DNA of 64,000 bases from a virus (Duplodnaviria > Caudoviricetes): positions 64,001-128,000 of IMG/VR virus record IMGVR_UViG_3300031555_003626, one strand, 5' to 3'. Below the pieces are notes generated by a model, which did not search any database, was not told the origin of the DNA, and was given only the letters and a program-made list of their open reading frames with translations. Position numbers and translations under genes: made by a program. This document shows positions 18,414 through 60,962 of this stretch, piece after piece. Position 1 is the stretch's first letter. Every line of letters starts with the position of its first letter.

Positions 18414-19229
18414 ATGGAATTAAGAGAATGGCAGTATATGAGTAAGCCTGCTAGTAATTCAGGAAGCTATAAGAAAAGATTTGAAAAACTTATTAAATAT
18501 CATATAGACCATGCTTCTTCTGAACTTGAGAGTATTACGAGAAAAGATATTTCTGATAGGTACTTCCGCCTTAGCGAGCATTATAACGATGGCTCTAAAG
18601 AATTTGATAGGAGCATTATAGTAGCGGTCGATACGAGTACCGAAGAATTCGAAATACATATTTTTATAGACCATGAGGAAGTAGAGAGTATTCAACGTAA
18701 GGGCTATGAAAATTTCGTAGCCGCTATTGAGCCTTATATGTTTCTTCCTGACTCTGGGACTCAGGAGTATGATGACTTACTAGTAGAATGGATTGTCATG
18801 AATAATTCTACAACAAGTAGTTCTCAGCCGGCTTCAGTAGTTTCTTCTAAAACTAATAAAGAAAAATTTATAGAGCTTATTGCTTATATGGTTAATCATA
18901 AAGCTTCAGATGTTATTGCAACTGAAGAGTCTAGACTAGATAATACAGGTTTTCATTATAAGGAACATCATAAGCCGGCTAATGAAAAAGATCATGAAAT
19001 CGAAGTTAAGGTAGGCTGCAGTAGATTTAAAGATTTATTTTCTATTTATATTTTTAAAGACGGTAAACAGATAATGACTTATATGGCTAGCGGGTGGGAA
19101 GAACTGCTAAAGTACCTTAAAGGTTATTTTAGTGTTCCTAGCTATGGAAGTCCGGAACATAAGAGTTTATGTGAATCCGCTTCTTCTATAGCAGAAGACT
19201 TTAAGACTTACGAAAATCTTTGGGATTAA
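18414..19229 (+). CDS. Hypothetical protein with internal duplication; candidate internal head protein
   Basis: Two ~110-aa repeats, each preceded by LxEW; C-terminal EDFKTYENLWD. Confidence 0.7.
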   Translation: MELREWQYMSKPASNSGSYKKRFEKLIKYHIDHASSELESITRKDISDRYFRLSEHYNDGSKEFDRSIIVAVDTSTEEFEIHIFIDHEEVESIQRKGYENFVAAIEPYMFLPDSGTQEYDDLLVEWIVMNNSTTSSSQPASVVSSKTNKEKFIELIAYMVNHKASDVIATEESRLDNTGFHYKEHHKPANEKDHEIEVKVGCSRFKDLFSIYIFKDGKQIMTYMASGWEELLKYLKGYFSVPSYGSPEHKSLCESASSIAEDFKTYENLWD

Positions 19230-19259
19230 AAAATATTAGAAAGGCAGAAAAAATATTTT

Positions 19260-19796
19260 ATGAACTTACTAAATGCCTTCGGGCTACTGAATATGATTAA
19301 TGAAGGCGGAGCAGACTATCAGAAAGAATATAAAGAATATGTTATTGCTCATAAAGAAAGAGTTTCTCAATTTTCTTCTTGGCTTAAGGAGAATTGCCCG
19401 GACCTTTTTGAGAATATAGATATTGATGTATTTGATGATCTCATAGCCGAGCATGATGAGTCTAAGTTCTCAGAAGAAGAGTTCGAGCCTTATGCTCAGA
19501 GATGGCACGGAGATAAGAAGAAGACTCCTGAGTACGAGAGGGCCTGGGAACATCACTGGCAGAACAATGAGCATCACCCTGAGTACTGGCTCGGAGAGGA
19601 TATGCCTTATGTCTATATTCTTGAGATGATTTGCGACTGGGGAAGTTTTTCTATAGCTTCCGGAGATATGAAAGAACTTTCTGAGTTTTATTATAATAAG
19701 GCTAAAGAAGACCCCGAGAAAAATCTTTCTGATGCTACCCAGGAAATAATAGAAGACCTGCTTGTGAAAATAAATTCAGCAGCTGGAATTGAATAA
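19260..19796 (+). CDS. HD-like metal-binding protein (DUF5662-like)
   Basis: HK..V, HDESKFS, AWEHH..NEHHPEYW, EMICDW. Confidence 0.65.
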   Translation: MNLLNAFGLLNMINEGGADYQKEYKEYVIAHKERVSQFSSWLKENCPDLFENIDIDVFDDLIAEHDESKFSEEEFEPYAQRWHGDKKKTPEYERAWEHHWQNNEHHPEYWLGEDMPYVYILEMICDWGSFSIASGDMKELSEFYYNKAKEDPEKNLSDATQEIIEDLLVKINSAAGIE

Positions 19797-19799
19797 TTT

Positions 19800-20559
19800 T
19801 TATTGACCTCTTATTTTATTATAAGGGGTCTAATTATTTTTATGAGCTCATATTTTTATTCAGGTCGCACGAAAGGTAGTTGGTCTATAAACTTTATAAG
19901 GCCGAGAGGGAAAACGCGACAGGAAGAGAATTTGGGCTTCTGGTGAATGTTTTAAAAATATTATACTGCTCTGGAATTGTTTACGAAATGTTTACAATTT
20001 CGTGTGGCGCGTTTTAAGGTACCTCTGGCACGTTTAAATGCCTTGGGTATATAAACAGTAGGGTACTAGTATACAACTGCAATACAAAGAGAATTTGGTA
20101 TGCTAGAATGCGTTCTGGCGGTTCTCCCGCCACCTGTAAAATTAAAAGTTTACGAAATGTTCACAATTTCATTAATTTATTAATTTATTAAATTAATAGC
20201 CCGCCCATATAAATAATATAAAATTTTCTAAAAATTTTTTTAATAATTTATTAAATTACTATAATATATACTGTATATTATAATAGATAGATCTTTTAAA
20301 TATTTTATTTTAACTGTAGTTATAGACTGAGGCCTTTAGGCCGAAGGCTATGCGGCTTGCCGCAATACTAAAAAAATTCTCAAAAACCAAAAATAAAAAT
20401 ATAGAATATATAGAAATATAAATATATCTATTATAGATCTATAATATAGCCCTGGAGTATTATTATATATAGGACTAGAGCGTGCGTGCGCATGGTGCGC
20501 GCGTGCAAATAATTTTTTAGAAATTTTCAAAAAATCAGATTTTTCAGTTAGGAGCATAC
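19800..20559. other. Long non-coding region; candidate replication origin or terminal region
   Basis: Direct repeat GTTTACGAAATGTTYACAATTTC (19979, 20148), very AT-rich tract at 20166-20320, alternating purine/pyrimidine tract at 20480-20506. Confidence 0.45.
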
Positions 20560-20868
20560 ATGAAGACAGTAATTAACCATAAATCAGCAATTATTAGATG
20601 CCCACATTGTGGAGCAGAATATCTTCCTGGGGAGATTTATATGCCTGGTTCTCTTATAGGCCAACCAGATGAAGTAGTAAAAGATTCTTTAGGTAAGATC
20701 ATCTATGAAGATTATTATACTGAAACTAGAGAGCCAGACATGACAGAAAGCTTTATTTGTGACTACTGTGATAAGCCCTTTGTTGTTGAAGCTACAGTTA
20801 CATATAAAACTAGAGAAGAAGCCCCTGAAAAGGATTTTTCTACCCAGTATGTCTCACTTTTAGATTAA
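20560..20868 (+). CDS. Small Zn-binding protein
   Basis: CPHC and CDYC; AGGAG RBS. Confidence 0.65.
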   Translation: MKTVINHKSAIIRCPHCGAEYLPGEIYMPGSLIGQPDEVVKDSLGKIIYEDYYTETREPDMTESFICDYCDKPFVVEATVTYKTREEAPEKDFSTQYVSLLD

Positions 20869-21069
20869 TTACACCTTTTTCTAGCTAAAATTCGAGCTAA
20901 TTTGCACCTTTTTGCGCTTTTTAGTCGAATTTTGGCTATTTCCTTACGCGCATGCGTATATGCGCGCGAGACTTCCGAAATTTCGATAATCTCAAAAATC
21001 TCGTTTCTGTAACTTTCGAGATTTCGGTAATCTCGTTTATTTCATTCCGTAACTTAGGAGATTTCATTA

Positions 21070-22797
21070 ATGATTAGAATCTTTGAGATCTCGCCGCCAA
21101 AGAAAATATCAGGTCTATCTTCCTTGATAGTTGACTTCAACTTTAATCAATACATAGTAGACTCTATTAAGACTATACCTACAGCACACTATCATAAGAA
21201 AGAGAAATGCTGGGAACTTCCGATTTGTTATCTCGGCCGATTATTAGATAGTCTTACTTTCTTGGACGAGATACAACTTAAATTATTAGATACGCCGAAA
21301 TCTGGCGAATTTCATTTTAACAAACATTTTAACCTGGAGCCACTTTCTGAAATTGAGAAAGTTTCGTTCAAGATGAAACCTTTCGAACATCAGCTCGAGG
21401 CTATTAACTTTGGGTTAGACAAAGAGAAGTGGCTTCTTCTGGACTCTATGGGTCTAGGAAAGACGAACTCTATTATCTGGCTCGCTGAGACTCTTAAGAG
21501 GAGAGGGATAATTGATCACTGTTTCATTATCTGCGGAGTCAACTCTCTGAAACAGAACTGGAAGAAAGAGATTCAGAAGTTCTCGACCGAGTCAGCTGTT
21601 GTCTTAGGAGAGTACATAACCCGAAACGGAACTACTCGTTACAGGTCTATGGACAAGAGAGCACAGCAGCTCAAGGATCCAATAGAGGAATTCTTTGTTA
21701 TCACCAACTTAGAAAGTCTCAGAGACGACCGGATCATCGAAGCCTTCAATAAGTCGGCTAACAAGTTCGGCATGATCGCTTTCGACGAAGCCCATAAGGC
21801 AGCGACTAAGACTTCTCAGCAGGGAACTAACCTGCTAAAGCTAGAAGCTCCCTTTAAGATTGCAGCAACCGGAACTTTGATTACTAATAATCCCCTCTCC
21901 GCATATGTCCCTCTCTCGTGGACTGGTAATGATGAGTCGACTCTCACGAACTACAAATCTCAGTACTGTAATTTCGGAGGTTTCAAAAATAACCAAGTTA
22001 TTGGCTTCAAGAATCTAGATGTCCTCCAGGAAGTTATTAAGTCGTGTTCACTTAGAAGAACTCTGGATCAAGTAAGATCTGACATGCCACCGAAGACAGT
22101 AACCCTGGAACTTCTAGAGCCGGAAGACGATCAGCGTAAGTTCTATGAAGCAATCAAAGAAGGAGTCAAGGAAGAAGCCGACAAGATTGAACTTAAGACC
22201 TCGAGCCTCCTTGCTCTTACTACTAGACTTAGACAAGCATCCGCATGTCCGAGTATCCTGACTACTCAACCCGTAAGTTCATGCAAAGTAGATCGCTGTC
22301 TAGAGCTGATCCAAGAACTTACTTCTCAAGGAGAGAAGGTTGTGGTACTCTCAGTGTTTAAAGAAACTCTAAATGAGCTCGCAGCGAAACTCGACGAATT
22401 TCGTTTTAGTATAAATACCGGTGATGTCCCAGATCCGGTAGTTGCTAGTAACGTAGCTAGATTCCAAGATGATCCTAATGAACAAGTATTCATTGGTACT
22501 TGGGGAAAGGTCGGAACCGGCTGGACTCTTAACTCTGCTTCCTACCTTATCTGTCTAGATACACCTTACACTGCTGCGATGTTCGACCAAGGAGTAGACC
22601 GCATATATCGTGTAAATAATACTCGTCCAGCTTTTATCACTGTTTTAATTTGTCGAGATACTATTGATGAAAGAGTGCAACAAATTATCGAGTCAAAGAA
22701 GGAACTTGGTAATTACCTGATAGATGGTATTGAGTCTAGCAATATAACAAATAATTTACTCGATGATGAGCTAAGAGCAATTATCAGAGATTTGTGA
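21070..22797 (+). CDS. SNF2-family helicase/ATPase
   Basis: PFEHQ, DSMGLGKT, FDEAH, ATGT..N, LRQ, GTGWTLN, QGVDRIYR. Confidence 0.9.
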   Translation: MIRIFEISPPKKISGLSSLIVDFNFNQYIVDSIKTIPTAHYHKKEKCWELPICYLGRLLDSLTFLDEIQLKLLDTPKSGEFHFNKHFNLEPLSEIEKVSFKMKPFEHQLEAINFGLDKEKWLLLDSMGLGKTNSIIWLAETLKRRGIIDHCFIICGVNSLKQNWKKEIQKFSTESAVVLGEYITRNGTTRYRSMDKRAQQLKDPIEEFFVITNLESLRDDRIIEAFNKSANKFGMIAFDEAHKAATKTSQQGTNLLKLEAPFKIAATGTLITNNPLSAYVPLSWTGNDESTLTNYKSQYCNFGGFKNNQVIGFKNLDVLQEVIKSCSLRRTLDQVRSDMPPKTVTLELLEPEDDQRKFYEAIKEGVKEEADKIELKTSSLLALTTRLRQASACPSILTTQPVSSCKVDRCLELIQELTSQGEKVVVLSVFKETLNELAAKLDEFRFSINTGDVPDPVVASNVARFQDDPNEQVFIGTWGKVGTGWTLNSASYLICLDTPYTAAMFDQGVDRIYRVNNTRPAFITVLICRDTIDERVQQIIESKKELGNYLIDGIESSNITNNLLDDELRAIIRDL

Positions 22798-22858
22798 TAG
22801 AATTTCGCGAGTAAAAAATAAGCTAAATTAAATGAAGTATTTTAAGGAGCTTATTTAA

Positions 22859-23779
22859 ATGCTAGATTTTACAAATACAGATTATATAATTTTTATTGAG
22901 TCTATAATTAACAATAGAGGACAGTGGTCGGATGGTCTATCTCATTGGGAAGGTCATCACATTATTCCTACTAGCTACGGAGGAGAGGGTCGTACTAAAG
23001 ATAGACACCCTAATATCATTAGACTAACTCCGGGTGAACACTTTAAGGCACATAAGCTATTAGCTTTAGACTTTCCAGAAATTCCAGCTTTCGCCCAAGC
23101 ATTTTATATAATGGCTAATACATTTAAAGTTAATAGTTCTTGGAGTAATAAAAGGTCTTTTGATATTTCAGAAGAAGACTTTGAACTTGCTCGAACTCTG
23201 TACTTAGAAGCCGTACGAAAAGACCCAGCTATATCGGGTAATGGCATTAGAGGACGTAAAGCTGTTTATAATGAAAAATTAAATATTAAAAAATATATCT
23301 TTCCTGAAGAGCTAGAGACATTTTTATTAGAAAATACTGACTGGCGTCTCGGTGGACCAAGGCACACAGAAGAAGAGCTAGCTAAGATGAGCTTGAAACT
23401 ATCAGGAACTAATAATCCTAGGTCAGGCTGTAAGTTTACTGACGAAATGAAAGAGAAAGCACATAATACTAGAAATGGTAAGAAGTGGTTTACTAATGGG
23501 CTCACTGATGTATATTGTCTACCAGAAGAAGCCCCTGAAGGTTATCGCTTAGGTGCTACTCATCAAAGTCGAGCCGGAGCAGCTAATCCAATGTACGGAA
23601 AGACCTCAGCCACAGGTAGAAAAGTTAAGTGCTTAAATACTGGAGAGATATTTGAGTCTAAGCGTAAGGCTAGTTTTGCATTACCTATAAGTATCCCAAT
23701 GATCGATAGGTCTATTATTAGTAAGGGTCCTGTAAAGAATAGGGCAGGTGATCTTTATCAGTTTGAATATGTTGACTGA
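22859..23779 (+). CDS. Free-standing HNH homing endonuclease with NUMOD-like repeats
   Basis: EGHHIIP..GG, LTPGEHFKAHKLL, NNPRSG/NPMYGK, KWFTNG, VKCLNTGEIFES. Confidence 0.85.
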   Translation: MLDFTNTDYIIFIESIINNRGQWSDGLSHWEGHHIIPTSYGGEGRTKDRHPNIIRLTPGEHFKAHKLLALDFPEIPAFAQAFYIMANTFKVNSSWSNKRSFDISEEDFELARTLYLEAVRKDPAISGNGIRGRKAVYNEKLNIKKYIFPEELETFLLENTDWRLGGPRHTEEELAKMSLKLSGTNNPRSGCKFTDEMKEKAHNTRNGKKWFTNGLTDVYCLPEEAPEGYRLGATHQSRAGAANPMYGKTSATGRKVKCLNTGEIFESKRKASFALPISIPMIDRSIISKGPVKNRAGDLYQFEYVD

Positions 23780-24206
23780 AGCTAACTCCGAGCAATCCTT
23801 CGAGATCTCTAAGGAAGCCAGGGAACTCGGGTTAGTAATAAGATACGATACTATAGAGTACAGAGGGGAAACTCTAAACTTCCTCTCTGATCCATCGGGT
23901 CATCAATGCTTTGCTCAGTGGAGAGGGAAGCTGGTAGACCTAGGGCTTAACAACATCTACTACAAAGAAGACATATGTAAGTTCGTGGATCGTGAACTCG
24001 ACCTGATTACTGACTTCTGTAATTGCCCGGATTTCGCCGGTGCGAAATTAGAGTATTTTCATAATGGAGATTTCCGGGATATCAGACTCTGCTACAAAGG
24101 TAGGATACTTAAAATCTTCTTAGTTGCCGGCGAAGTAAACGAGATTGCGCTAATTTCAGAATCGGAGAAGTTGTTAAGAAAGTCTGGGTTACTTGACGAA
24201 ATTTAA
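23769..24206 (+). CDS. Hypothetical protein
   Basis: Open ORF overlapping the HNH stop; start uncertain. Confidence 0.6.
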   Translation: MLTEANSEQSFEISKEARELGLVIRYDTIEYRGETLNFLSDPSGHQCFAQWRGKLVDLGLNNIYYKEDICKFVDRELDLITDFCNCPDFAGAKLEYFHNGDFRDIRLCYKGRILKIFLVAGEVNEIALISESEKLLRKSGLLDEI

Positions 24207-24255
24207 GTAATTTCAATTTGCTAAATTATGTGATTAATCTTTAAGGAGAATATAA

Positions 24256-25164
24256 ATGGTAACATATATTTATTTTGTAAAGTGCCCTAACTGTGAGGAT
24301 GAGCCCTTCGACTTCTTTGACGAAGCTAAGGCATTTGCTATGGGCTGCATGAACCAGAAGCCTGTTATTAATCAAATTGAGGTTAATAGAAATGATTTTG
24401 GCGAGTGTACTGACTCTTGTGATCTTGGAACAGTTTGGTCTTGGGAAGATGCTGTAGGTAAGGAAACTGAAGCAGAACCCGCAGTATCTGTTTTTAATAA
24501 AGGTGACTTTGGGAAGTATACAGATGATTCTGAGTTCGATGATGATGAATTCTACTTTAGTAACGGACTTGTAGAAGAAGTTGCACCTACGAGATTTTCA
24601 TTTAAGAATAAAGCAGATCAAGAAGAGTTCTTTAAGCTCTGCCGCGAAATTGGTATAATTACAGGTGCAGACCTTCGTAAGTTTATAGACGAGAACGATG
24701 CTGACGACTCTAACCTTCTTGATAAGCTCAGAGAATATAGAGCTGAACTTGGTGATGACTTTAAGATTGCTGAGTGCGCTAAAAAGCCGATTCCAGAAGG
24801 AATGACTATCGAGCAGCTAGTAGAAGAGATGGAAGAGAATGAGGATACAGTTGAGTGTACCTGGTGTAATGACCTTTTTGATAAGAGTGAGTGTCGTAAG
24901 GAAGTAGATCTCGGTTGGCTTTGTAGTAGATGTGAGATGGCTATAAAGTCTAGAGGTGAGACTCTTACTTTCAGAGAAGGAAATTATTGGGATTTCCTTG
25001 ATGAAGAAGTAGAAGAGGTTCATGATCTCGGTAATGAGTATGATGGTGGTTATCCTGCCGAAACTCCAGAAGTTTCAGATTCTCACCTAAAGTTCTGTCC
25101 CGAGTGTGGAAAAGAAACCTTTGATATTGAAACCGGAATTTGCATAGAATGCGGATTTAATTAA
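24256..25164 (+). CDS. Acidic modular Zn-ribbon protein
   Basis: Several CxxC pairs; GCTAAATTA upstream; AAGGAG RBS. Confidence 0.7.
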   Translation: MVTYIYFVKCPNCEDEPFDFFDEAKAFAMGCMNQKPVINQIEVNRNDFGECTDSCDLGTVWSWEDAVGKETEAEPAVSVFNKGDFGKYTDDSEFDDDEFYFSNGLVEEVAPTRFSFKNKADQEEFFKLCREIGIITGADLRKFIDENDADDSNLLDKLREYRAELGDDFKIAECAKKPIPEGMTIEQLVEEMEENEDTVECTWCNDLFDKSECRKEVDLGWLCSRCEMAIKSRGETLTFREGNYWDFLDEEVEEVHDLGNEYDGGYPAETPEVSDSHLKFCPECGKETFDIETGICIECGFN

Positions 25165-25251
25165 TTTTTATCGTATAATATAAAGTCGGATAGTTGAGAG
25201 GACTGCTGTCCGGCTTAATATAAAAAATAACAAAAAGGATTGGTATTTAAA

Positions 25252-25776: not shown

Positions 25777-25836
25777 TTTGCATAAAAATTATTGAGACAA
25801 TTTGAGAAATTTCAAATTATTTATCGTATAATATAA

Positions 25837-25912
25837 TATAAGAGAAAACTCTTATACAAGTTTCCTCCTTTGTTCGTTGCGCTGGATGTTTCCTCCCGTC
25901 CAGCGCTTTTAT
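25837..25912 (+). ncRNA. Candidate small RNA with two anti-Shine-Dalgarno motifs
   Basis: Promoter 25822-25832, 5' hairpin 25837-25856, GTTTCCTCC twice, terminator 25879-25910. Confidence 0.65.
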
Positions 25913-25939
25913 TTTAATTATTATAAGGAATAGCTAAAA

Positions 25940-26323
25940 ATGCAAGATAAAGAAGCACAAGAACTTTTATTAAAAATATTAGAGTATGCAGAAGAAGGGA
26001 AATTGATCCAATTTCAGTTAATCACTACCTGGCATGATTTTATAAGTTATTGGAAGGATTATAGATCCACTAAGTTAGTTATTAAGATGTTAACGAAAGC
26101 AGCAGCTAATCTTTTTAAAACTTACTGTAAAGAAGTGTCGACCGGGTCGACGGACTTTACTAAACTCCTTGCTTACTCCCAACTCCAAGATGTTATAGCT
26201 TTCTACGAGAGGGACTTGGATACTCTAAAGCGAATGTTAGATGAATACGATGAGTATCTTGGTCACGGACATTTTTGGTTTTCTTTTTTAGGAGGTACAC
26301 GAGATATATGGAACACCCACTAA
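25940..26323 (+). CDS. Hypothetical protein
   Basis: AAGGA RBS, 127 aa. Confidence 0.65.
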   Translation: MQDKEAQELLLKILEYAEEGKLIQFQLITTWHDFISYWKDYRSTKLVIKMLTKAAANLFKTYCKEVSTGSTDFTKLLAYSQLQDVIAFYERDLDTLKRMLDEYDEYLGHGHFWFSFLGGTRDIWNTH

Positions 26324-26624: not shown

Positions 26625-26708
26625 AGGCAGAAATTAGCCTTAGAATCAGCTAAATTAATTACAGAGCAGAAGGCTCTTAGACATAAAAATTGAGGAAAGG
26701 TATTAGTT

Positions 26709-28913
26709 ATGCAAAGAGTTATTAAGCGTGATGGCAGAGAAGTTGAGTTCGATAAGATGAAGATTATCGAAGCAATTTCACATGCTAATCAGGAAGTCAT
26801 TAAATCAAAGCAGATCAGCAGAAGAAAGATTGATCAGCTTGCAGATATCGTAGAAGAGAAGTGTAGTGTATATAAGCGCGCAATAAAGGTCGAAGATATT
26901 AACGACCTAATTGAAGACGAACTTATCTTCCGAAATTATAACAATCTCGTTCGCGCATTTATTAAATACAGACATAATAAAGAGTTAGTAAGAAAATCTA
27001 ATACTACCGATGATTCGATTCTCAGCTTAATTAATCTTAGCAATGAGGAACTTAAGCAGGAGAATGCAAATAAGAATCCGGTAATTAACTCTACACAGAG
27101 AGACTACATGGCAGGAGAAGTATCTAAGGACCTTACACGCAGACTTCTTCTACCTAAAGATGTAGTGAAGGCACATGACGAAGGTACAATTCATTTCCAT
27201 GACATGGACTACTTCGCGCAGAGACTACATAACTGCGATCTAGTTGCCCTAGATGACATGCTTCAGAACGGTACTGTAATCAGCGGTACTCTTATTGAGA
27301 AGCCACATAGTTTTTCTACTGCGTGTAATGTAGCTACACAGATAGTTGCGCAGGTAAGTAGTAATCAGTATGGTGGTCAGTCAATCACCCTCTCCCACCT
27401 GGCACCTTTTGTAGACATTAGCCGTAAGAAGATCAGAGCTGAGGTTGAAGAAGAGCTTAAATCTTTGGATCAGTATAGCCGAACTCTGTTGGCAGCTGAC
27501 ATTACAGAAAAGCGAGTTCGCGCAGAAGTAAAGCGTGGAGTACAGACGATCCAGTATCAGGTCAATACCCTACTCACTACTAATGGCCAGGCACCTTTCA
27601 TTACCGTGTTTATGTACCTCAACGAAGTAGAAGACGAGCAGACTAAAAAAGACCTGGCGATGATCATCGAGGAAGTTCTTCTTCAGAGATATGAGGGAGT
27701 TAAGAATGAGAAAGGTGTTTGGATCACACCGGCTTTCCCGAAACTCATCTATGTTCTAGAAGAAGATAACATACGAGAGGGAACTGACTACTGGTATCTT
27801 ACGAAGCTTGCTGCTAAATGCTCAGCTAAGCGACTTGTTCCTGACTATATTAGTGAGAAGATCATGAAGGAACTTAAGGAAGGTTCCTGCTTCGCACCTA
27901 TGGGTTGTAGAAGCTGCCTGTCTCCTTGGTATGACGAGAATGGAAAAGCAAAGTATTGGGGTAGATTTAATAAGGGAGTAGTTACTGTTAACTTAGTAGA
28001 TGTAGCTTGCTCGGCAACCGGCGAAAACTATTCTAAAGACATGGATAGCTTCTGGAAGACATTTGATGAAGTACTTGAACTCTGTCATAAAGCCTTGCTT
28101 TGCCGCTATGAAAGACTCAAAGGTACTATCAGTGATGTTGCTCCAGTACTCTGGCAGCATGGTGCTATCGCTCGACTTAAGAAAGGTGAGACAATTGATA
28201 AGCTTCTTACTGGTGGATACTCTACTATCTCACTCGGATATGCCGGACTTTGGGAATGCGTTAAAGAACTGACCGGTAAGGACCTGCTTTCTGAGGAAGG
28301 TCAGGAACTCGGACTAGAGATCCTCAGACATATGAATGAGAAGTGTGATGAGTGGAATGAAGAACTTAATCTTGGATTCGGAATCTACGGTACCCCTCTC
28401 GAGAGTACTACTTATAAGTTCGCTAGATGCTTGCAGAAGCGCTGGGGCGAAATCCCCGGAGTTTCGGATCGCAACTATGTCACCAACAGTTATCATGTTC
28501 ATGTAGAAACTCCTATTGATCCGTTTAAGAAGCTTGAGGTAGAAGCTAAGTTCCAGAGACTTTCTAAAGGCGGTGCAATCAGCTACATCGAAAGTGCTAA
28601 TCTTGAGAATAATCTCGAAGCGGCTCTGACTATTATCCAGTATATCTACGATCATATCATGTACGCTGAGATTAATACTAAGTCAGATTACTGTCATGAG
28701 TGCGGCTGGGATCGAGAAATTCTTATCGAAGAAGATGAATCTGGTAAGCTTATCTGGAAGTGCCCTAACTGTGGAAATACAGATAGAGACCGTATGAATA
28801 TTGCGCGTAGAGTCTGTGGCTATATTTCTGCACAAAACTTTAATCAAGGAAGAACCGCAGAGATTAGAGACCGCTATGTTCACCTAGATTGTCATGAGTG
28901 TGGTTGCGAATGA
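26709..28913 (+). CDS. nrdD: Anaerobic (class III) ribonucleoside-triphosphate reductase
   Basis: ATP cone VIKRDG, IHFHDMD, QYGGQS, PMGCRS, YVTNSYH, CxxC pairs, glycyl-radical motif RRVCGY. Confidence 0.97.
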   Translation: MQRVIKRDGREVEFDKMKIIEAISHANQEVIKSKQISRRKIDQLADIVEEKCSVYKRAIKVEDINDLIEDELIFRNYNNLVRAFIKYRHNKELVRKSNTTDDSILSLINLSNEELKQENANKNPVINSTQRDYMAGEVSKDLTRRLLLPKDVVKAHDEGTIHFHDMDYFAQRLHNCDLVALDDMLQNGTVISGTLIEKPHSFSTACNVATQIVAQVSSNQYGGQSITLSHLAPFVDISRKKIRAEVEEELKSLDQYSRTLLAADITEKRVRAEVKRGVQTIQYQVNTLLTTNGQAPFITVFMYLNEVEDEQTKKDLAMIIEEVLLQRYEGVKNEKGVWITPAFPKLIYVLEEDNIREGTDYWYLTKLAAKCSAKRLVPDYISEKIMKELKEGSCFAPMGCRSCLSPWYDENGKAKYWGRFNKGVVTVNLVDVACSATGENYSKDMDSFWKTFDEVLELCHKALLCRYERLKGTISDVAPVLWQHGAIARLKKGETIDKLLTGGYSTISLGYAGLWECVKELTGKDLLSEEGQELGLEILRHMNEKCDEWNEELNLGFGIYGTPLESTTYKFARCLQKRWGEIPGVSDRNYVTNSYHVHVETPIDPFKKLEVEAKFQRLSKGGAISYIESANLENNLEAALTIIQYIYDHIMYAEINTKSDYCHECGWDREILIEEDESGKLIWKCPNCGNTDRDRMNIARRVCGYISAQNFNQGRTAEIRDRYVHLDCHECGCE

Positions 28914-38153: not shown

Positions 38154-38366
38154 ATGAAAATTACAAAAGCTGACATCACTAATGCAATCGCTCTGACGCC
38201 TGCTTCTCTTGACAAAGCAAACATCAGAGCGATGAGAAGTGCTTTCCTTGGGTTCTATACGCCTAAGGATGCTAACTGGTCTTGGGAACTTCATGCTATC
38301 TCAGTTGATGGTGTTCCTATGGTAGTTGCTTCTCGTTTCGGTTATATCGTCGCAGAAGGTAAGTAA
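38154..38366 (+). CDS. Small hypothetical protein
   Basis: GGAGGT RBS, upstream promoter. Confidence 0.6.
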   Translation: MKITKADITNAIALTPASLDKANIRAMRSAFLGFYTPKDANWSWELHAISVDGVPMVVASRFGYIVAEGK

Positions 38367-38381
38367 GGAGGAATACCTAAG

Positions 38382-39677
38382 ATGAAAACACTTTTTCACT
38401 TCAAAGATTTTGTTAAGGAGATCAGCGCAAATAATTCAAGAAAGTTTAAGCAGGGAGTGCTTGAGAAGTATAAGGACGACTCTGTAGTACATAGATACCT
38501 TAAGATTGCCTTTGATCCTTATGCAGTCTACGGTATTTCGACTAAGAAACTTCATAAGTCGGTTCCGGCAACTTCCATTATAGGCATCCACTCCATCTTT
38601 GAGCTTTTCACCTACCTTACGCAGTACAATACCGGCACTGATCAGATAGTAGGTCTGTGTCAGGACTTCCTTGACGGCGTAGCGGCTTGCGACAGAGAGT
38701 CTGCAGACCTTCTTGAGAAGCTTATCTGCAAGGATCTCAGTATCGGGTGCGATGCTAAGTCAATTAACTCTGTAATTCCAGGACTTATTCCTACTTTCGA
38801 CGTACAGCTCGCTCAGAAGTACTTCGATAAGCCTGAGAAGCTTGAGGGTAAGTATTTTGCTCTCACTACGAAGATCGACGGCGGTCGTATTATCGCCATA
38901 AAGGAAAATGGTCAAGTTTCGTTTTTCACTCGAGCAGGTCAGTTGTATGAGGGCCTCGTAGATCTCGAGAGGGAAATGCAGGAGAACATGCCGGACGGAA
39001 CTGTCCTTGACGGAGAGATCACTATCTTCGAGGATCGTGGTATCCCTTCTAAGGAAGCTTACAAGAGAGCGATGAAGATCACGCGTTCTGATGGAGAGAA
39101 GCATGGACTCAAGATGAAGTGCTTCGATGCGATGTATATCGATGAGTGGAAGGCTCAAAAGTCTACTCACGACTACATCGAGAGAAGAGCTTTGCTTAAT
39201 ACACTTGTTGCTCGAAAAGCTTTGATTTACTTCGAAGTTCTTCCGGAGCTTTACAGAGGAACGGATACTACTAAGGTACTTGAATTCCTCGATGAAGCAA
39301 TCGCTAATCAGGAAGAGGGAGTCATGATCAACATCTGCGATGCTCCTTATGAGTTCGGCAGAACCTGGTCGCTTATGAAGGTAAAGAAGATGAATACTCT
39401 CGACCTCGAGATAGTCGGATACGAAGAGGGATCAGGAAGACTTGCCGGTACTCTCGGAGCTATTCACGTAAGATATAAGAACGGTAATATCGTTAAAGTC
39501 GGTTCCGGTTTCTCTGATGAACTTCGTGCACTCATCTGGCTTGAGCCTTCTGACTTCATTGGTAAGATAGTTGAGATTCAGTACTTTGAGGAAACTACTA
39601 ACGCAGATGGCGGCAAGAGTCTTCGCTTCCCGGTATTCAAAGACTTCAGAACTGATAAGCTTACCCCCGACTTCTAA
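38382..39677 (+). CDS. lig: ATP-dependent DNA ligase
   Basis: Motif I KIDGGR, LDGEI, FDAM, EGVMI, MKVK, VGSGFSD, SLRFPVF. Confidence 0.95.
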   Translation: MKTLFHFKDFVKEISANNSRKFKQGVLEKYKDDSVVHRYLKIAFDPYAVYGISTKKLHKSVPATSIIGIHSIFELFTYLTQYNTGTDQIVGLCQDFLDGVAACDRESADLLEKLICKDLSIGCDAKSINSVIPGLIPTFDVQLAQKYFDKPEKLEGKYFALTTKIDGGRIIAIKENGQVSFFTRAGQLYEGLVDLEREMQENMPDGTVLDGEITIFEDRGIPSKEAYKRAMKITRSDGEKHGLKMKCFDAMYIDEWKAQKSTHDYIERRALLNTLVARKALIYFEVLPELYRGTDTTKVLEFLDEAIANQEEGVMINICDAPYEFGRTWSLMKVKKMNTLDLEIVGYEEGSGRLAGTLGAIHVRYKNGNIVKVGSGFSDELRALIWLEPSDFIGKIVEIQYFEETTNADGGKSLRFPVFKDFRTDKLTPDF

Positions 39678-53911: not shown

Positions 53912-53912
53912 T

Positions 53913-54251
53913 ATGAAAGTAAAGTTTAATACAGAAGTAGTTTGTTTAAATGTAAATTTAGCTATTGCTATTGGTACAAACAGTCGTCCAACCCCACCGA
54001 TAAAAGATGGAGAGCTTACATATTTTGAAGGAGCAGATCCATATGTGTTGTCGAAAGAACTATTTGTAAAAGGTTTAAAAAATCAAGTATTGGAAATTTC
54101 TTCCTATACCTACAATCCTATAGAGCATAATCTAAAGTTTACTTTACACCATAAATTTATACAGAATCAAATTTGTACAGATGAAATCGATATAACTACT
54201 TATGAAGTAGAAAATATATTTGAGCATGATTTTGAAATTATTGAGGTTTAA
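53913..54251 (+). CDS. Hypothetical protein
   Basis: GGAG RBS; more AT-rich than its neighbours. Confidence 0.55.
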   Translation: MKVKFNTEVVCLNVNLAIAIGTNSRPTPPIKDGELTYFEGADPYVLSKELFVKGLKNQVLEISSYTYNPIEHNLKFTLHHKFIQNQICTDEIDITTYEVENIFEHDFEIIEV

Positions 54252-54253
54252 GA

Positions 54254-54712
54254 ATGATTCTATCAAAAGAAGTAAGGCAGAAGATAACTGCAGAGTTTGA
54301 AAGCTTTAAAAAAGAAATGTATGCAGGAAGAACTCAGGAAGAAAGAGATAAGCTTGGACAGTTCTTTACCCCAGCAGCCCTGAGTATCCAGATGATAGAA
54401 AGATTCGAAGTCGATTCTTTAGCAGGTCAGAAGATACTTGATCCTACTGCGGGTTCAGGAAACTTGCTGGCAGCATGTTTAATTGCTGGGGCAGACTCTA
54501 ATAAAGTATTCGGTAATGAGCTAGACAAAACTATGCTGAATGCTTGCCGAAGAAGATTAAACAAGATCTGTAGAGAACTTGGGAAACCTGAGATTCCTTA
54601 TCATCACTTGCATCAAGGAGATGCTACCGATCCAAGATGTCTTACTGTATTTAGTTCGGCTTATGATTGGAAGAAGCCTGAGCCCGGTGATTTATTTAGT
54701 TCATTTTTCTAA
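54254..54712 (+). CDS. N6-adenine methyltransferase SAM-binding half
   Basis: LGQFFTP, ILDPTAGSGNLL, FGNELD, QGDA; ends before any NPPY. Confidence 0.8.
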   Translation: MILSKEVRQKITAEFESFKKEMYAGRTQEERDKLGQFFTPAALSIQMIERFEVDSLAGQKILDPTAGSGNLLAACLIAGADSNKVFGNELDKTMLNACRRRLNKICRELGKPEIPYHHLHQGDATDPRCLTVFSSAYDWKKPEPGDLFSSFF

Positions 54713-54725
54713 GGAGATAAAGTAG

Positions 54726-55283
54726 ATGCTTAAACTTATATATGATCTTAAAGTAGGATACAGAGAGTGTTATCTTACTGTACTTAATGAAGAGTTCGAT
54801 GTGTCCGCGGTATTCCAGCAGGAGCGTGACTCCCTAGTAGAAGAAGGTTTTCTTGTCGATGAACCTGATGAAGTAGAACTCTACACTCAGTATAAAGATA
54901 GTATCCCGGAGCTTCTTGAATTCTTAGAAGATAGTGGTGATCTTGACGGAGAACGTGAAGCAAGTATTCTACACTACACTAAGACTTTCTTTAGTTCAGT
55001 AGCAGAGCCCGGAACATGCTGCGGTATCTGGGAACCTAGTAACTGGAGACTGGTATATGACCCAGATACAAGGTCTTCTATCCGGTATCTTAATGCCCTG
55101 TCTGCGAAAGAAGTATGTGATCTTCTTAAGCTTACTAAGCAGCAGCTTCACTACTACGTAAAGACAGGACAGATTAAGAAGGAGTTTAATCCTGAGAAAT
55201 CAAAGCAGTTTAAATATAATAGAACAGATGTCTATGTTCTTCAGAAGAAGCTTGAGAAGAAATACGACAGATACAATAGGTAA
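54726..55283 (+). CDS. Protein with C-terminal MerR/excisionase-like HTH
   Basis: LSAKEVCDLLKLTKQQLHYYVKTGQI...YNRTDV. Confidence 0.7.
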   Translation: MLKLIYDLKVGYRECYLTVLNEEFDVSAVFQQERDSLVEEGFLVDEPDEVELYTQYKDSIPELLEFLEDSGDLDGEREASILHYTKTFFSSVAEPGTCCGIWEPSNWRLVYDPDTRSSIRYLNALSAKEVCDLLKLTKQQLHYYVKTGQIKKEFNPEKSKQFKYNRTDVYVLQKKLEKKYDRYNR

Positions 55284-55370
55284 CACTTGCAAACCCGGTC
55301 GATTAACGTTGGCCGGGTTTTTAATTTGCTAAATTATGTAGTTAAATAAATTATTCGAGAGGTTTATAAC

Positions 55371-56432
55371 ATGAATGAATTTACTAGATCTAGACTCGTA
55401 GATCTTTTCTGGGAGGGTCTTACGAACTGGGATTGGGAATCTTGGCAGTCAGCTGGAGCAGAAGACAAAGAGACTATAGTAACTGATGCTATAATAGAAC
55501 TTGGAATCGATATAGACATTAATGATGCTTATGATCTTTTCTGGGAATGGGCAGATGGACTTGATGAGAACGCTTTCGGATCTGAGTACTCGGAAAGTCT
55601 ACAGGAAGAAACAATACTAGAAAGCTCCTTAACTGCAGAAGAAAAGGTTGATGCTTGGCATAATGGTACTAGAAGAGAAAACTATAAAGCAGCAGGTGAA
55701 GCTAAGCTAAATACTTACTTAGAGATCGCGAAGAGTAAGGGTTATGATGAGATAGTTGAGATCATAGAGGGAGAACTTAGTAGGCGAGGGATCACAGCGA
55801 CAGCTTCAGCGCCAGTAAGTTCTACTACTTCTACAACTCCAGTAGCAGACACTGCACCTGATCTAACTACCTCTGTTTCTGATACTACAGAAGAACCGGT
55901 ATCATCAGAGGCTCCGGTAGAAGACACGACACCGGCGGTTACTTTAAGTGATAAAGATTTAGATGCTCTCTTAGGTATGGCAATACAGAGGTTTGGTACT
56001 GGTGTACTTTCTGCTTATTCTGTATGGAAGAGTGCTGGCGGTTTTATTGGAAGCTATTCTCTAACTTGGAGAAACAATAATGGTAATCCTATTAAGTCGG
56101 ATAGAGCAATAGATAAAGTAATGGATCTAGCGTATGATCATAATAAGCTTATTGTATTAGTAGATTACTTCCGCGGTGGCTCACATAACATAGATAGATA
56201 CTACTCTATAGATGTACCTTCTTCTACTACTTACATAGTTGACCGCGGTACGATTTATAAGCAAGCCCGCGAAGCTTATTCTTACTATGACTCTGAGCTT
56301 AACTGGAACTTCTACACACTAATAAAGAACAAAGTTAATCAGAAGAAAGTAAAGATATTCCTTTTAGAGAAGGTTCCGGCGCTTACTCCTGAACAAGCTG
56401 AAGAAATTACGACTAAGTTTTTTGAAAGATAA
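55371..56432 (+). CDS. Modular hypothetical protein; candidate internal head protein
   Basis: GCTAAATTA upstream; LQEETILES junction; T/S/P linker. Confidence 0.65.
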   Translation: MNEFTRSRLVDLFWEGLTNWDWESWQSAGAEDKETIVTDAIIELGIDIDINDAYDLFWEWADGLDENAFGSEYSESLQEETILESSLTAEEKVDAWHNGTRRENYKAAGEAKLNTYLEIAKSKGYDEIVEIIEGELSRRGITATASAPVSSTTSTTPVADTAPDLTTSVSDTTEEPVSSEAPVEDTTPAVTLSDKDLDALLGMAIQRFGTGVLSAYSVWKSAGGFIGSYSLTWRNNNGNPIKSDRAIDKVMDLAYDHNKLIVLVDYFRGGSHNIDRYYSIDVPSSTTYIVDRGTIYKQAREAYSYYDSELNWNFYTLIKNKVNQKKVKIFLLEKVPALTPEQAEEITTKFFER

Positions 56433-56578
56433 ATACTGTATTATAAGGTAATCTATTAACGTAGGTTACCTTTTCTATTTGTGAATAAATTGTTAACAAT
56501 TAAGAAAAAGGGTTTACAAAATAAACTTTTTGTGGTATAATATAAATGTAAAAAGAAATACATAAGGAGTACCTTCAG

Positions 56579-59312
56579 ATGGAAAATTTTAATGGTATCG
56601 CTCGAACAGTAGGGGAGCTTAAGGAAATGCTTAGCCAACTTCCTGATGATGCCTCGCTTGAGTTAAAGCATATCTTCGTAGATACTTATGTGGAAGTAAG
56701 TTATGCTCACGAAACCAATACAGTAACCCTGAGATAAGGAGAGAGAGAGCTATGATTAAGATTATTAAAGAAAGAACATTGGAAACTATTCCTGAATATC
56801 ATATCGAGTATACTTATAAGGATGACCCCGAAGCCGGCTTCTGGTTTCCTGCTACTCCTTCTGGAGAACCTGACTTCGAGAACATGGGACCTGAGATGAG
56901 AGCTAACTACGATCGTTGTCAGTCAGATGATAGACTCAATGAACCGGAGTTTAAGGTCTATAAGCATACTTACTCGAACCCTGCAGTAGGAAAGTGTATC
57001 TGTGGTAGAGAGGTTGTTCTTGATACTGGATACGAAGGTGCAGTAAGCTGTGAGTGTGGAAAGTGGTATAACCTCTTCGGTCAGGAACTTAGAGACCCTA
57101 AGTATTGGGAGGAAGATGATGAATAATGATTGGGTATACGAAGCTATCGCTCGTCAGAAGAAATATAATGCTGGTTACGAAGACGGCTATAGAGCAGGTA
57201 AGTGGGTAGCTGCTGCGCTAATCTTTGAAGATATAGATAAGCTACATCTTCATGTATCTAACGAGTATGAAGCGAGAGCTTATGAAGAACTTAAAAAGAA
57301 ATACGGAGTAGAGTAATTATGGATAAAACTCTTAATCAGAGAATATATGAAACCCCTGCAGATGTTAAGAAAGCTATTCATGACTTTGGATATGAAGAAG
57401 GAAAGAAGGCTGCAGCAGAACAAATATTAGCAGACATCTGCAGAATAGGTGGATGTTCCAGAGGAGTGATCTTAAACCCCTGGGACATTACAGAACTTAA
57501 AGAGAAGTATGGAGTAAAGTAATGAAGATTAAATTTAAGACTTTCGAGTCATATGAAAATACAATCGAACGATCCAAGAGTTGTTCTGCCACAGAGTATC
57601 TTAATGAGTGGCTAGAAGAAAACCCTAACGTAGAAATCATTAACTGGGATACCTGTGCTACTAACTCAGACGGAGTTTATATTACTATTCAGTACTATGA
57701 AAGCTGAGGTTTGTTATGGATACTAAGCAGATGTTAAAAGACGGCTTTGTAAAGAAGCAAGTAGTTATCTTAATAGATAAAGATACATACTCTGGTAAGG
57801 AACACTTCGTAGTAGTTGATACCCCAGAGCATGCGAAAGAATATAAGACTTGGGAAACTATGCGACTTGCTACTATGTATGTAAAGGAGAACTAAAGATG
57901 AAACCTTTTGAATTTATGTACGGAGATACTTGGTACAAGTATGAGGACGGATACATCTACAGACAGAACATCTATGGAAACTACGAACAGATGATTCCAG
58001 TAGTAAGGGAACTTAATCAGACTCTAGATAACTTCTCGCTGCCGGATAAGCAGAATATCATGTGTGCTATAGTTCATGGTCATACCTATGGTAAACTCGC
58101 TGGGGCTGCTAATAAAATAAAAGAAATCAAGAGAGTACTTGATATAGATTAAGGAGGAAGATATGTTTGATAGAAACGTAACTATGTCTTTCGAGATCGA
58201 TAAAAGAACTCTGACTCATATCAAAGATATATCTCACTATAATCATAACTATTATCACATTGAGCTCAGCAGCTATGGAGATTATATTCTGTCTGAGAAG
58301 TGTGATATCATCTATGAGGAATGTACTGATGATGATTCCGGTGCTTACTATTCTCTCGGCTGGTTTGAGGGCTCTAAGTTCATAGCAGCTTGGACTTGGT
58401 ATGAGAACGAATGTCTGGATCTGGATATTGAAATTGAGAACTTTAGAAAGGTAGATTAAATATGATCTATAATGAAGAATATATAACAACAGCCTGTAGA
58501 GTAGAGGAGCTTATTGCTGTATTGACTTCTAAGGTGCCGCCACTTGCTACAGTAGATGTTGCGGCCTATGAACATAAGGCAGATGTAGAAGTCTGGTACG
58601 ATAAGGATACTAATACGGTTATATTAAAGTAAGAGGAGTATACCTGATGAAGAACTGCGTAATCATACACGTAATAGAAACTGACTTCCAAGGTCGTAGA
58701 GTCCAGCTTGGAGCTTCACTCAGTAAGGAAGCTGCAGAAAGAAAGTGTGAAGAGCTTAAGGCTAGTAATAGATATCAGCACTTTGAAGTTAGTGAGTATG
58801 CTATTACCGAGGAGTATGAATACTTCGATTGGATTTAAGGAGATCTATCATGAGCTACTGGACTAATAAACTTACAGAGCAAGACTCCCTGATCGGCCGA
58901 CCCTGTTGGTATCAAAAGCCTTACAACACGGATATAGTATTCGGACTCATTAAGGAAGTACAGGTTAGACAGAACTCTAAGGGTAAAGAAGCTATAGCTA
59001 CTCTTGACAATGGTACTACAGCAGTACTACATACCTATGGTTGCCCGGACTTTATCGGTAGAGCAGTATGGGGTTTCTTAACCAGAACAGAGTGTGAAGA
59101 ATACTGGGATATGTAAAAGGAGAATATATATGATTACACCTACTACTGAACTTCTTAAGGAAGCTATCGAAGATGCTGATGAACTAATAGAGTATGTACT
59201 ATCTTCTTCCGGGGATCCTAATCTACCTATGTGGTTAGAGGATCTAAAGCGAAAGATTCATACTGCTTACCGTAGACTTACCAGTCCTGTAAAGCAACAG
59301 GAGGAACGATGA
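56579..59312 (+). CDS. Operon of small hypothetical proteins (56579-56737, 56752-57126, 57116-57316, 57319-57522, 57522-57707, 57716-57895, 57898-58152, 58163-58459, 58462-58632, 58647-58838, 58850-59116, 59130-59312)
   Basis: Sigma-A promoter at 56513-56541, RBSs, tight packing. Confidence 0.65.
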
Positions 59313-59587
59313 ACTACTATCATGGAACATCTATACCTGGGTTGAAAGTAATTCTGCCGCCTATTGAAACCAGAGTACTTAGAGAAGACTTTAGAAAGAA
59401 GTTCATGGACTGCGTATTCGTTACTCCCTCTCGACTGTCGGCTGCTAATTATGCCAAGAAGTGTGCTGACAAGTTTGGTGGTCAACCTATAGTATATGAA
59501 GTCAGACCAGTTAATCCTACAGAAATAAATAGATCCCAGTATGTCTGTGACAGGGCCTTTGTACTAGACAGCCATGAATTAAAATAA
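59309..59587 (+). CDS. Arr-like ADP-ribosyltransferase
   Basis: YYHGT, VFVT, A..YA, G.P.VYEVRP. Confidence 0.65.
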   Translation: MNYYHGTSIPGLKVILPPIETRVLREDFRKKFMDCVFVTPSRLSAANYAKKCADKFGGQPIVYEVRPVNPTEINRSQYVCDRAFVLDSHELK

Positions 59588-59673
59588 AGTTTAAAGAGCT
59601 AACTCTTATTTCCAGGGTTGGCTATTTTTTATTGCTAAATTATCTAGACACAAAACTATGAGAGGTATTACAT

Positions 59674-60414
59674 ATGAACGATATTTTTGAACAATGCGCA
59701 ATAGATGGAGAGCTTACTCCAGAATTGATTAAGTGTAAGCAAGAGCTTGATCAGAGTATGGAAGCAGAGCTTAGCAAGATAGAAGCAGATAAAGGCAATA
59801 AGTGGTTGCCCAAAGAAAAGCATTATGCAGAAATAAGACAGAAGTATGAGGATGCTTGGGAGCAGACACTTACTGATGCTGGTTATGTAGTAAGACCTGT
59901 CTTTGAGTCTATTGAGAAGCCTACCTTCGAGGACTGGTATGAAGAACTTAATAGAATAAATGAATGGGTAGCTGTAAAAGGAAATAAAGTAAGTGCTGGC
60001 TATAGTACTTCGACTGCATCTACTACATCCTCCGCCACTACTAAGAGCAGTACAAAGAAAAGACCCAAAGTAAAAACAATGTTTGGTGTTGTAGAAAGCT
60101 GGGAAGATGAATTTGTTAAGTTAGATAGTCATTTAAGAACAGTGAATCCTTTGCCTGCTCAGGACCATGATAGAAAAATTACTCCTACTTTGCTAAGGAC
60201 TTATTGGGTCGATAAGCAGGGCCTGGAGCGTAGACTGGAAGTAACTACAACAGAAATGAGAAACTTTAAATCCTATGAAAAATGGGATTATGTTCTTTCT
60301 GTAGAGGATAATGGCGAGAAGATTATTTCAAGGGGTTACATAAAAGATTATGAAGCACTACTTGATATTCTTCTTAAGACCGGCGATATTACAGATAAAT
60401 CAAAGTGTATATAA
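59674..60414 (+). CDS. Modular hypothetical protein sharing a domain with 18414..19229
   Basis: INEW plus S/T linker, then DEFVKL...DYEALLDIL; GCTAAATTA upstream. Confidence 0.65.
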   Translation: MNDIFEQCAIDGELTPELIKCKQELDQSMEAELSKIEADKGNKWLPKEKHYAEIRQKYEDAWEQTLTDAGYVVRPVFESIEKPTFEDWYEELNRINEWVAVKGNKVSAGYSTSTASTTSSATTKSSTKKRPKVKTMFGVVESWEDEFVKLDSHLRTVNPLPAQDHDRKITPTLLRTYWVDKQGLERRLEVTTTEMRNFKSYEKWDYVLSVEDNGEKIISRGYIKDYEALLDILLKTGDITDKSKCI

Positions 60415-60437
60415 TTTTTAATAAGGAGTATATAAAT

Positions 60438-60962
60438 ATGAAGTTACATGAAGAGTTTAAACTATACGAAGACATGTGGGAAGACGAAGTTCCTGCTACT
60501 GAAGATTCTGTAGCTGAGGTAGCTGCTGAGGAAGCTTCAGAACCTGTCACAAGAACCTTCGGTAGAAAGGCTTATGACCTTACTAACAGGGATGAGCTAT
60601 ATGCTTGGGTCAAAGCTAATACCGACTTCCAGGCAAATAGGCGTCCAGTTAGGTATAGAAATGCAGATGGTACTATTACTTCAGATTGGATTAGACTTCG
60701 TTCTCGTATAGCAAAAAATTTACTTGCGTCGCTTGAAGCTGAGGGTATAACTAATCCCACAGTTCTAGATAACCTACAAAGAATCGCTACTGGTAATTTT
60801 AGTAAGTTTACAAAAGTATTTGCTAAAGACGAGTTAAATACGCTCTTCTCAGAATTTACGAGTAAGTTGTCTGCGCGTTTTGATGCTAAAGAAATGCGAA
60901 TAGTTAATAGAGACCTAGATGCTCTTAAACAGAAGCTGCTTGATATGAAGACCACAATCTAA
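60438..60962 (+). CDS. Hypothetical protein with capsid-targeting-like N-terminus
   Basis: AAGGAG RBS; starts MKLHEEFKLYEDMWE. Confidence 0.65.
   Translation: MKLHEEFKLYEDMWEDEVPATEDSVAEVAAEEASEPVTRTFGRKAYDLTNRDELYAWVKANTDFQANRRPVRYRNADGTITSDWIRLRSRIAKNLLASLEAEGITNPTVLDNLQRIATGNFSKFTKVFAKDELNTLFSEFTSKLSARFDAKEMRIVNRDLDALKQKLLDMKTTI

Follow-up and report, generated by a model that had tools for sequence, protein, structure and literature searches.

The stretch of DNA analysed here (the window, 64,000 bp in full) comprises bases 64001-128000 of a 233,329-bp phage record from IMG/VR with 37.4% G+C, whose plus strand holds nearly all of the genes. Along it lie gene cassettes headed by the motif GCTAAATTA, and two of the encoded proteins, named here like all others by the window coordinate at which their genes start, share an acidic-aromatic peptide of 15 residues (consensus MKLHEEFKLYENMWD, hereafter the tag). 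An initial annotation of the window had reported this peptide at the N-terminus of 60438 and at the C-terminus of 18414, and had proposed that it addresses proteins to the phage head, where they would be processed like the internal proteins of T4. Both copies of the tag, together with every other motif that the annotation quoted, were found in place. The features of these two proteins are as follows (window coordinates).

18414-19229, plus strand: X-family protein with two alpha/beta modules (residues 17-123 and 144-255), a disordered N-terminus and linker, and a C-terminal tag
18780-18791, plus strand: LVE/W joint leading from module 1 to an S/T-rich linker; E125 is invariant in 69 homologues
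19167-19178, plus strand: LCE/S site six residues ahead of the C-terminal tag; [LIVM]xE lies 4-7 residues before the tag in 116 of the 120 listed homologues
19194-19226, plus strand: C-terminal tag copy EDFKTYENLWD, present in all 120 listed homologues
60438-60962, plus strand: tagged cargo protein consisting of the tag helix (60438-60482), an acidic flexible linker of about 20 residues and a folded domain

A six-frame scan of the genome with the tag pattern of the initial annotation returned exactly four matches, all located at protein ends. Three unrelated proteins carry it N-terminally, starting at genome positions 21524 (a GIY-YIG endonuclease), 23806 and 124438 (window 60438), the first two of which fall outside the window; only 18414 carries it C-terminally. 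When a hidden Markov model (HMM) of the tag was compared with the whole proteome, the four copies scored 38, 36, 32 and 14 bits and the next match 6.8 bits. The HMM recovered no degenerate copies beyond the four, so that looser leaders of the F..EL...YE type, considered as further copies, are not supported as such. Apart from peptides in the duplicated genome end, the tag is the sole recurrent terminal peptide of the genome, and its four copies differ at synonymous sites and have unrelated flanks, indicating that it is the peptide and not the DNA that is conserved.

To look beyond this genome, we built a profile from seven copies of the tag and searched it against 1.84 billion representative proteins, among which 153 protein clusters matched at E ≤ 1e-3. 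Of the best 150 matches, 132 have a tag that begins no later than residue 8. Behind it, these 150 proteins have a mean column identity of 4%, fall into 49 BLAST families and match just 8 Pfam families. The database consensus reads M1 K2 L3 [H/F/Y]4 E5 E6 F7 K8 L9 [Y/F]10 E11 [N/T]12 [M/L]13 W14 [D/E]15, in which E5 and E11 are invariant (E11 in 128/128 and L9 in 120/128). The C-terminal form characterizes the X family, as we call the 164 homologues of 18414: the core [DE][DE]FK.YENLW occurs in 120 of the 120 homologues listed, 0-3 residues from the C-terminus in 110 of them and followed by a further domain of 49-94 residues in the other 10. N-terminal and C-terminal copies have this core in common, each with its own residue preferences (EE..NM versus DD..NL), and some database proteins are natural fusions that contain two tags or a tag between two unrelated parts. 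The tag is genuine and stands far beyond chance.

AlphaFold2 (AF2) models of the two tagged proteins of the window place the tag outside the folded domains. In 60438, residues 3-16 form a helix, residues 17-37 form a low-confidence acidic linker, and the domain behind it is modelled with a predicted local distance difference test (pLDDT) score >90. In 18414, pLDDT is about 90 in both modules and <50 at residues 1-16, 126-143 and 256-271, and the C-terminal tag is a helix of low confidence that is not docked on either module. Fold searches returned zero matches for the 60438 cargo domain and only middling, non-specific matches for the X modules (frataxin-like alpha/beta sandwich, Z 6-7.5). The helix-linker-folded cargo layout resembles that of the cargo-loading peptides of encapsulins and the encapsulation peptides of microcompartments, which consist of a short amphipathic helix at either terminus and a flexible, poorly conserved linker, serve non-viral shells and are left in place by maturation proteases. 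The analogy concerns layout only, and the shell here would be the head of a tailed phage. A location at one or the other terminus, with a flexible linker next to the helix, would also suit a degron or timing signal, read by a host or phage protease, that limits the lifetime of late accessory proteins. However, such a role leaves unexplained the conserved [LI]xE/A/S joints and swap points described below, and we know of no degron resembling the tag; we consider it exceedingly improbable.

The part of the protein behind the tag is exchanged at fixed sites. Relatives agree in the promoter, leader and 3′ flank of the locus that follows dnaX (genome 23749-24291), but each carries its own cargo there. 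The cassette of the tagged GIY-YIG gene is an insertion absent from three relatives, and a fourth relative carries at the insertion site an endonuclease-VII-like gene behind GCTAAATTA, with another leader. Compared with the two complete, more distant relatives G002 and G003, the tagged and cassette genes of the window have either no counterpart or a match restricted to the tag, whereas the head genes are core. The 60438 cargo domain itself occurs in other proteins behind a carrier of the 59674 type (see below) and behind X-family tags. A common N-terminal leader on many unrelated small proteins is also what would be expected if the tag were a recognition leader for a single modifying or maturing enzyme with many substrates, like the leaders of ribosomally synthesized and post-translationally modified peptides. 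Yet the tagged genes lie in scattered, separate cassettes and not beside one enzyme, and a radical-SAM/SPASM search of four genomes found no maturase gene that co-occurs with the tag. The sole radical-SAM gene of this genome codes for a protein of activase size (166 residues), lies beside nrdD and is also present in the tag-bearing relative G001; the tag-less relatives hold two radical-SAM matches each, and the SPASM domain is absent from all four genomes. A role as a maturase leader thus appears quite improbable.

The expression units of the tagged proteins and of their neighbours are delimited by the following elements.

18307-18315, plus strand: GCTAAATTA promoter-like motif of the unit containing 18414 and 19260, with a terminator-like hairpin upstream at 18014-18045
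19805-19830, plus strand: terminator-like hairpin at the end of the 18414 and 19260 unit
55328-55336, plus strand: GCTAAATTA of the 55371 cassette, flanked by terminator-like hairpins (55291-55320 and 56445-56472)
59634-59642, plus strand: GCTAAATTA of the two-gene cassette of 59674 and 60438, between hairpins at 59597-59623 and 60973-61002

Units 55328-56472 and 59634-61002 thus have terminator-like hairpins on both sides, and unit 18307-19830 has one behind it and another about 260 nucleotides (nt) 5′ of its GCTAAATTA. The window contains 11 copies of GCTAAATTA, where 1.6 would be expected. In the genome there are 39 sites on the plus strand and 3 on the minus strand; 35 of the plus-strand sites are intergenic, mostly 26-122 nt 5′ of a start codon. 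The head-tail block (genome 44-78 kb) is headed solely by GCTAAATTA and contains zero extended −10 boxes of the TGTATAAT type, which are common in the remaining genome. Because of this partition, it is reasonable to read GCTAAATTA as a late promoter. Three of the four tagged genes of the genome lie 46-107 nt 3′ of GCTAAATTA, the remaining one being second in a unit of this kind (hypergeometric p = 0.004). On 27 independent metagenome contigs, GCTAAATTA stands 39-139 nt upstream of 24 of 28 tags, and the motif is likewise found upstream at the variable post-dnaX locus of IMG/VR relatives. The scan of the genome and its relatives for the tag and for its association with this motif, suggested by the initial annotation, therefore bore out the expectation that tagged genes are enriched behind the candidate late promoter.

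Several other features of these cassettes were noted. A terminator-like hairpin at 18367-18392 separates the GCTAAATTA at 18307 from the start codon of 18414 and could be an attenuator or an RNA-stability element. Genes for homing-type endonucleases occupy GCTAAATTA cassettes of their own (HNH, window 22859-23779; GIY-YIG, genome 21524-22603). The tagged cassettes on either side of dnaX end in near-identical hairpins with compensatory changes (genome 22604-22660 and 24292-24345), each of which is followed by TTGTATAAT, as if to restart an interrupted early operon.

That promoter, leader and terminator travel jointly while the cargo is swapped between them, and that the two dnaX-flanking cassettes have such similar end hairpins, would agree with a start conserved for nucleic-acid reasons, either as a mobile promoter-leader recombination cassette or as a translation-initiation element, the peptide itself having no role. 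Nevertheless, the peptide is kept despite synonymous differences, it is kept at C-termini (120/120 listed) and inside fusions where neither a promoter nor a start codon is nearby, and its N-terminal and C-terminal copies combine their own residue preferences with the same core. We therefore consider a purely nucleic-acid function highly improbable.

The genome codes for a gp21-type protease and a gp23-type capsid protein. The major capsid protein gene (genome 56222-57547) belongs to the Gp23 family (PF07068, 108.6 bits). Directly 5′ of it, genome 54262-56160 codes for a 632-residue protein whose N-terminal Peptidase_S77 domain (PF03420, 41.5 bits, cut-off 27) is that of a T4 gp21-type prohead protease; behind the domain follow an acidic stretch and a coiled-coil, scaffold-like region. 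The portal gene (genome 51215-53173) was assigned by its position within the head module. L-x-E-S is invariant directly behind the protease domain, and the capsid protein has a conserved W[LIM]TE[SA] near residue 50; these conserved [LI]xE sequences are likely maturation sites.

The initial annotation had further placed module boundaries at nine [LI]xE sequences of five proteins. Besides 18414, these are the following.

19260-19796, plus strand: DUF5662 protein (Pfam PF18907, 1e-26, from residue 22) with a 15-residue N-terminal extension (19260-19304) ending in I-N-E
24256-25164, plus strand: Zn-ribbon-rich acidic protein behind GCTAAATTA (24220), whose LVEE and IAEC joints are not conserved
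55371-56432, plus strand: cargo protein whose N-terminal leader is exchangeable and whose conserved core begins after ILE/S (55614-55625)
59674-60414, plus strand: protein with an N-terminal carrier domain of about 95 residues, an INE/W joint (59956-59967), an S/T linker and an X-like module

Six of the nine junctions (LREW, LVEW, LCES, INEG, ILES and INEW) coincide with conserved swap points or domain ends; the other three, LVEE, IAEC and LQEE, are unconserved, the LQEE of 55371 being kept in one subgroup only. In four of the five named families, [LI]xE lies at the exact point where leader and cargo are exchanged, the exception being 24256. In the 55371 family, [LIVM]xE stands two residues ahead of the conserved core in 53 of 54 homologues, behind at least three unrelated leaders, with P2 freely variable and P3 and P1 fixed. 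In the X family, E125 of the LVE/W joint is one of just four invariant columns among the 69 homologues, and the AF2 model places it at the end of module 1, adjoining an 18-residue disordered linker. Homologues of 59674 agree over the roughly 95 residues of the N domain, which ends in [IL][NH]E, and diverge completely beyond it, and the X-like module that follows INE/W in 59674 is found in another protein (P0147) behind the short tag, to which it is joined via LTE/W.

The same sequence is enriched directly behind the tag. In 54 of 137 proteins, an [LI]xE follows the tag at a distance of no more than 12 residues, compared to 20.5 ± 4.0 in shuffled sequences (maximum of 32 in 500 shuffles), and at the equivalent positions of untagged proteins in 21%. 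The residue that follows this post-tag [LI]xE is A or S in 42 of 77 cases (55%), compared to 14.5% for all [LI]xE of the proteome (p ~3e-16). The commonest forms, LTEA and LTES, are the same as the conserved site of the capsid protein.

At least two further types of short N-terminal leader were found. The extension of the DUF5662 protein (15-17 residues, ending in [IV]xE) is confined to the tag-bearing subclade and is absent from the relatives G002 and G003 and from small unrelated phages. It belongs to a second portable leader, MN[FL][LI].A[FY]..L..[LI].E, which heads DUF5662 and three or more unrelated proteins, among them two in a relative and the product of the endonuclease-VII-like gene noted above, and which was found in the tag-bearing subclade only (0.02 matches to the regular expression per shuffled genome). 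Genes with this leader were located as follows.

G001, 38182-39160, 148688-149792 and 205657-206203 (reverse-complement coordinates): minus-strand open reading frames starting with the second leader
L078, about 395-445 (reverse complement): second-leader gene

A third short leader, MTKSEL..[ML]IRE.L.EEL, is the commonest N-terminus among the 55371 homologues (P0295-P0340) and ends in [LI]xE/S just ahead of the core of that family.

The joints and the varied position of the tag allow a different reading, in which the tag is a linear motif that docks late proteins to a partner other than the capsid (a host or phage hub, each other, or the X family) and [LI]xE is merely a common helix end at domain borders. 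Such a motif, like other hub-binding motifs, could stand at either end or in the middle of a protein; the joints do lie at predicted helix ends, the cargo is acidic, the tag is found together with the X family and both are missing from G002 and G003, and L-x-E-W is kept at the extreme N-terminus of the X family. On the other hand, the preference for A or S after [LI]xE and the recurrence of the same tetrapeptides at conserved capsid and protease sites point to a protease rule, as do a free P2 and fixed P3 and P1 positions. Comparison of the tag HMM with the proteome revealed no tagged replication or transcription protein, which argues against a clamp-type or polymerase-type hub, and AF2 leaves the X tag undocked from the X modules. 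Taken together, docking to such a partner seems unlikely, though credible.

The arrangement can be compared with two known systems. In T4, the capsid-targeting sequence (CTS) MKTYQEFIAE requires residues 4 and 7 for targeting and residues 8 and 10 for processing, gp21 cleaves after L/I-X-E, the internal proteins are diverse with only the CTS conserved, and Alt also loses a C-terminal propeptide (PMC8442874, PMC9026906, PMC3012670). The CTS is removed from IPI, IPII, IPIII and Alt by the gp21 prohead protease (Mullaney & Black 1996, as cited in PMC8442874; PMC9026906; PMC3012670). Here too, a short leader is found on otherwise unrelated, fast-evolving proteins in a phage with a gp21-family protease, a gp23-family capsid and L/I-x-E sites, and the leader is kept while the cargo is replaced at a fixed locus; Alt shows that a propeptide can also be C-terminal. 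Position by position, M1, K2, E6 and F7 of the tag are identical to the CTS, position 4 is H/F/Y where T4 has Y, and L-x-E follows. The systems differ in that the tag is longer (15 residues) with a conserved W14 after L-x-E, is routinely C-terminal (the whole X family) or between modules, and is interchangeable with at least two further leader types and a carrier domain of 95 residues. This phage, moreover, is uncultured and only distantly T4-like: the closest cultured capsid proteins, those of Bacillus phages vB_BceM-HSE3 and SP-15 and Listeria phage LIS04, are about 29% identical, and the roughly 45 related contigs in IMG/VR have capsid proteins 63-91% identical.

The inner-body and ejection proteins of phiKZ, 201phi2-1 and SPN3US have long propeptides that are removed by a gp175-type protease at S/A-x-E (PMC9026906). 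There, as proposed here, cleavage follows the Glu of a minimal three-residue motif in many head proteins, with several sites per propeptide, and the long propeptides recall the 95-residue carrier of 59674. By contrast, P3 is S/A in those phages but L/I in T4 and in the phage studied here, their cargo genes are grouped with those of the head while the ones described here form scattered cassettes, and a short common leader is not described for them in PMC9026906.

On this evidence, we favour the view that the tag, like the CTS of T4, is a portable leader that addresses proteins to the capsid, and that [LI]xE is the cutting rule of the gp21-type prohead protease, to which we assign a probability of about 0.55. 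Late in infection, the insulated cassettes (terminator, GCTAAATTA, one or more genes, terminator) would express small, fast-evolving proteins bearing an amphipathic acidic-aromatic helix at the N-terminus, at the C-terminus (X family) or between modules (fusions). This helix would dock the protein onto the assembling scaffold or capsid core, after which the protease would cut behind [LI]xE: within the tag at L9-Y10-E11, at a second site a few residues past it, commonly LTE/A or LTE/S, and at further sites at module joints. The freed cargo would then remain in the head and enter the next host with the DNA. Prohead binding, cleavage, retention in the head, injection and any role against the host are all inferred from sequence. 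The T4-like scheme of processed cargo put forward in the initial annotation is partly supported: the portable leader, the gp21-type protease and gp23-type capsid, the [LI]xE/A/S sites, the late-type insulated cassettes and the hypervariable cargo all fit it, and the acidic cargo and the unconserved joints of 24256 do not. To call the cargo effectors, as that annotation did, is a guess because the cargo is almost without known domains.

Several observations weigh against a capsid-addressing role. The likeness to the T4 CTS extends over about 10 residues, which is too short for statistics, and aligning L-Y-E with I-A-E requires a one-residue gap. The cargo is acidic and not basic as in T4, with a median isoelectric point (pI) of 4.6 compared to 5.4 for the proteome and 87% of the proteins below pI 6. 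T4 internal proteins are highly basic; basic cargo is, however, a trait of these proteins and not of the way they are targeted. Among the tagged proteins is a GIY-YIG endonuclease, and we know of no natural precedent for the packaging of an enzyme of this type. In 24256, LVEE and IAEC were rejected as joints, neither being conserved among five sequences. The N-terminus of the X family, M-[EK]-L-[RN]-E-W (window 18414-18431; LREW from 18420), is near-invariant though just five residues precede the W, and it mirrors the joint between the modules, where ..MN or.D..G.K[IV] and an S/T-rich linker come after L-x-E-W; if L-x-E-W served for cutting alone, its retention at residues 3-6 would be unexplained. 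GCTAAATTA also heads the anaerobic ribonucleotide reductase gene nrdD (window 26649-28913) and the HNH homing-endonuclease gene (window 22859-23779), so the motif is not a virion-only signal. Neither the tag nor the X family occurs in G002 and G003, which are complete, possess the same head genes and have capsid proteins 71-72% identical. None of the head-module genes follows the distribution of the tag over the tag-bearing G000 and G001 and the tag-less G002 and G003, and there is no receptor candidate: as 133 genes are common to this genome and G001 alone and the head module is core, nothing stands out. Finally, a search of a phage collection found no cultured carrier of the tag, nor any near-identical DNA.

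Two further searches in the relatives can be added. A search for recurrent N-terminal or C-terminal peptides that might substitute for the leader in G002 gave paralogues only. The C-terminus of the scaffold, considered as a look-alike of the tag, was dropped because it is conserved in all relatives irrespective of the tag.

Elsewhere in the window, a strong terminator-like hairpin at 25879-25906 has the loop TTTCCTCC, which resembles an anti-Shine-Dalgarno sequence. Other products of the genome include a T4-type baseplate protein, a YadA-like fibre, NrdD, DNA ligase and two SNF2-type helicases. About 12 genes are duplicated, mostly identically, near the ends of the record (genome 3.5-14.6 kb and 216-233 kb), which suggests a long terminal repeat or a wrap-around of the assembly; the unique genome would accordingly be closer to 218 kb.

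More broadly, we tentatively propose, at slightly less than even odds, that a distant and uncultured branch of jumbo phages in the T4 superfamily loads its heads by a plug-in scheme, in which interchangeable address modules would be joined to cargo at prohead-protease sites. These modules would be the 15-residue tag in its N-terminal, C-terminal and internal positions, the short MNF..AF..L..[IL]xE leader and the 95-residue carrier domain, and the cargo delivered with the DNA would form a very large, fast-changing repertoire of acidic, mostly uncharacterized proteins that includes homing-type nucleases. If so, capsid targeting as known from T4 would be a general, re-invented protein-shipping route of large phages and not a curiosity of the T-even group, and the presence of small accessory genes with their own late promoter and terminators inside early gene clusters would be explained. 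The short tag, usable at either end, would then also serve to put foreign proteins into phage heads. Well over 100 uncharacterized protein families would, in addition, be flagged by their sequence as probable factors of host takeover or anti-defence acting in the first minutes of infection.

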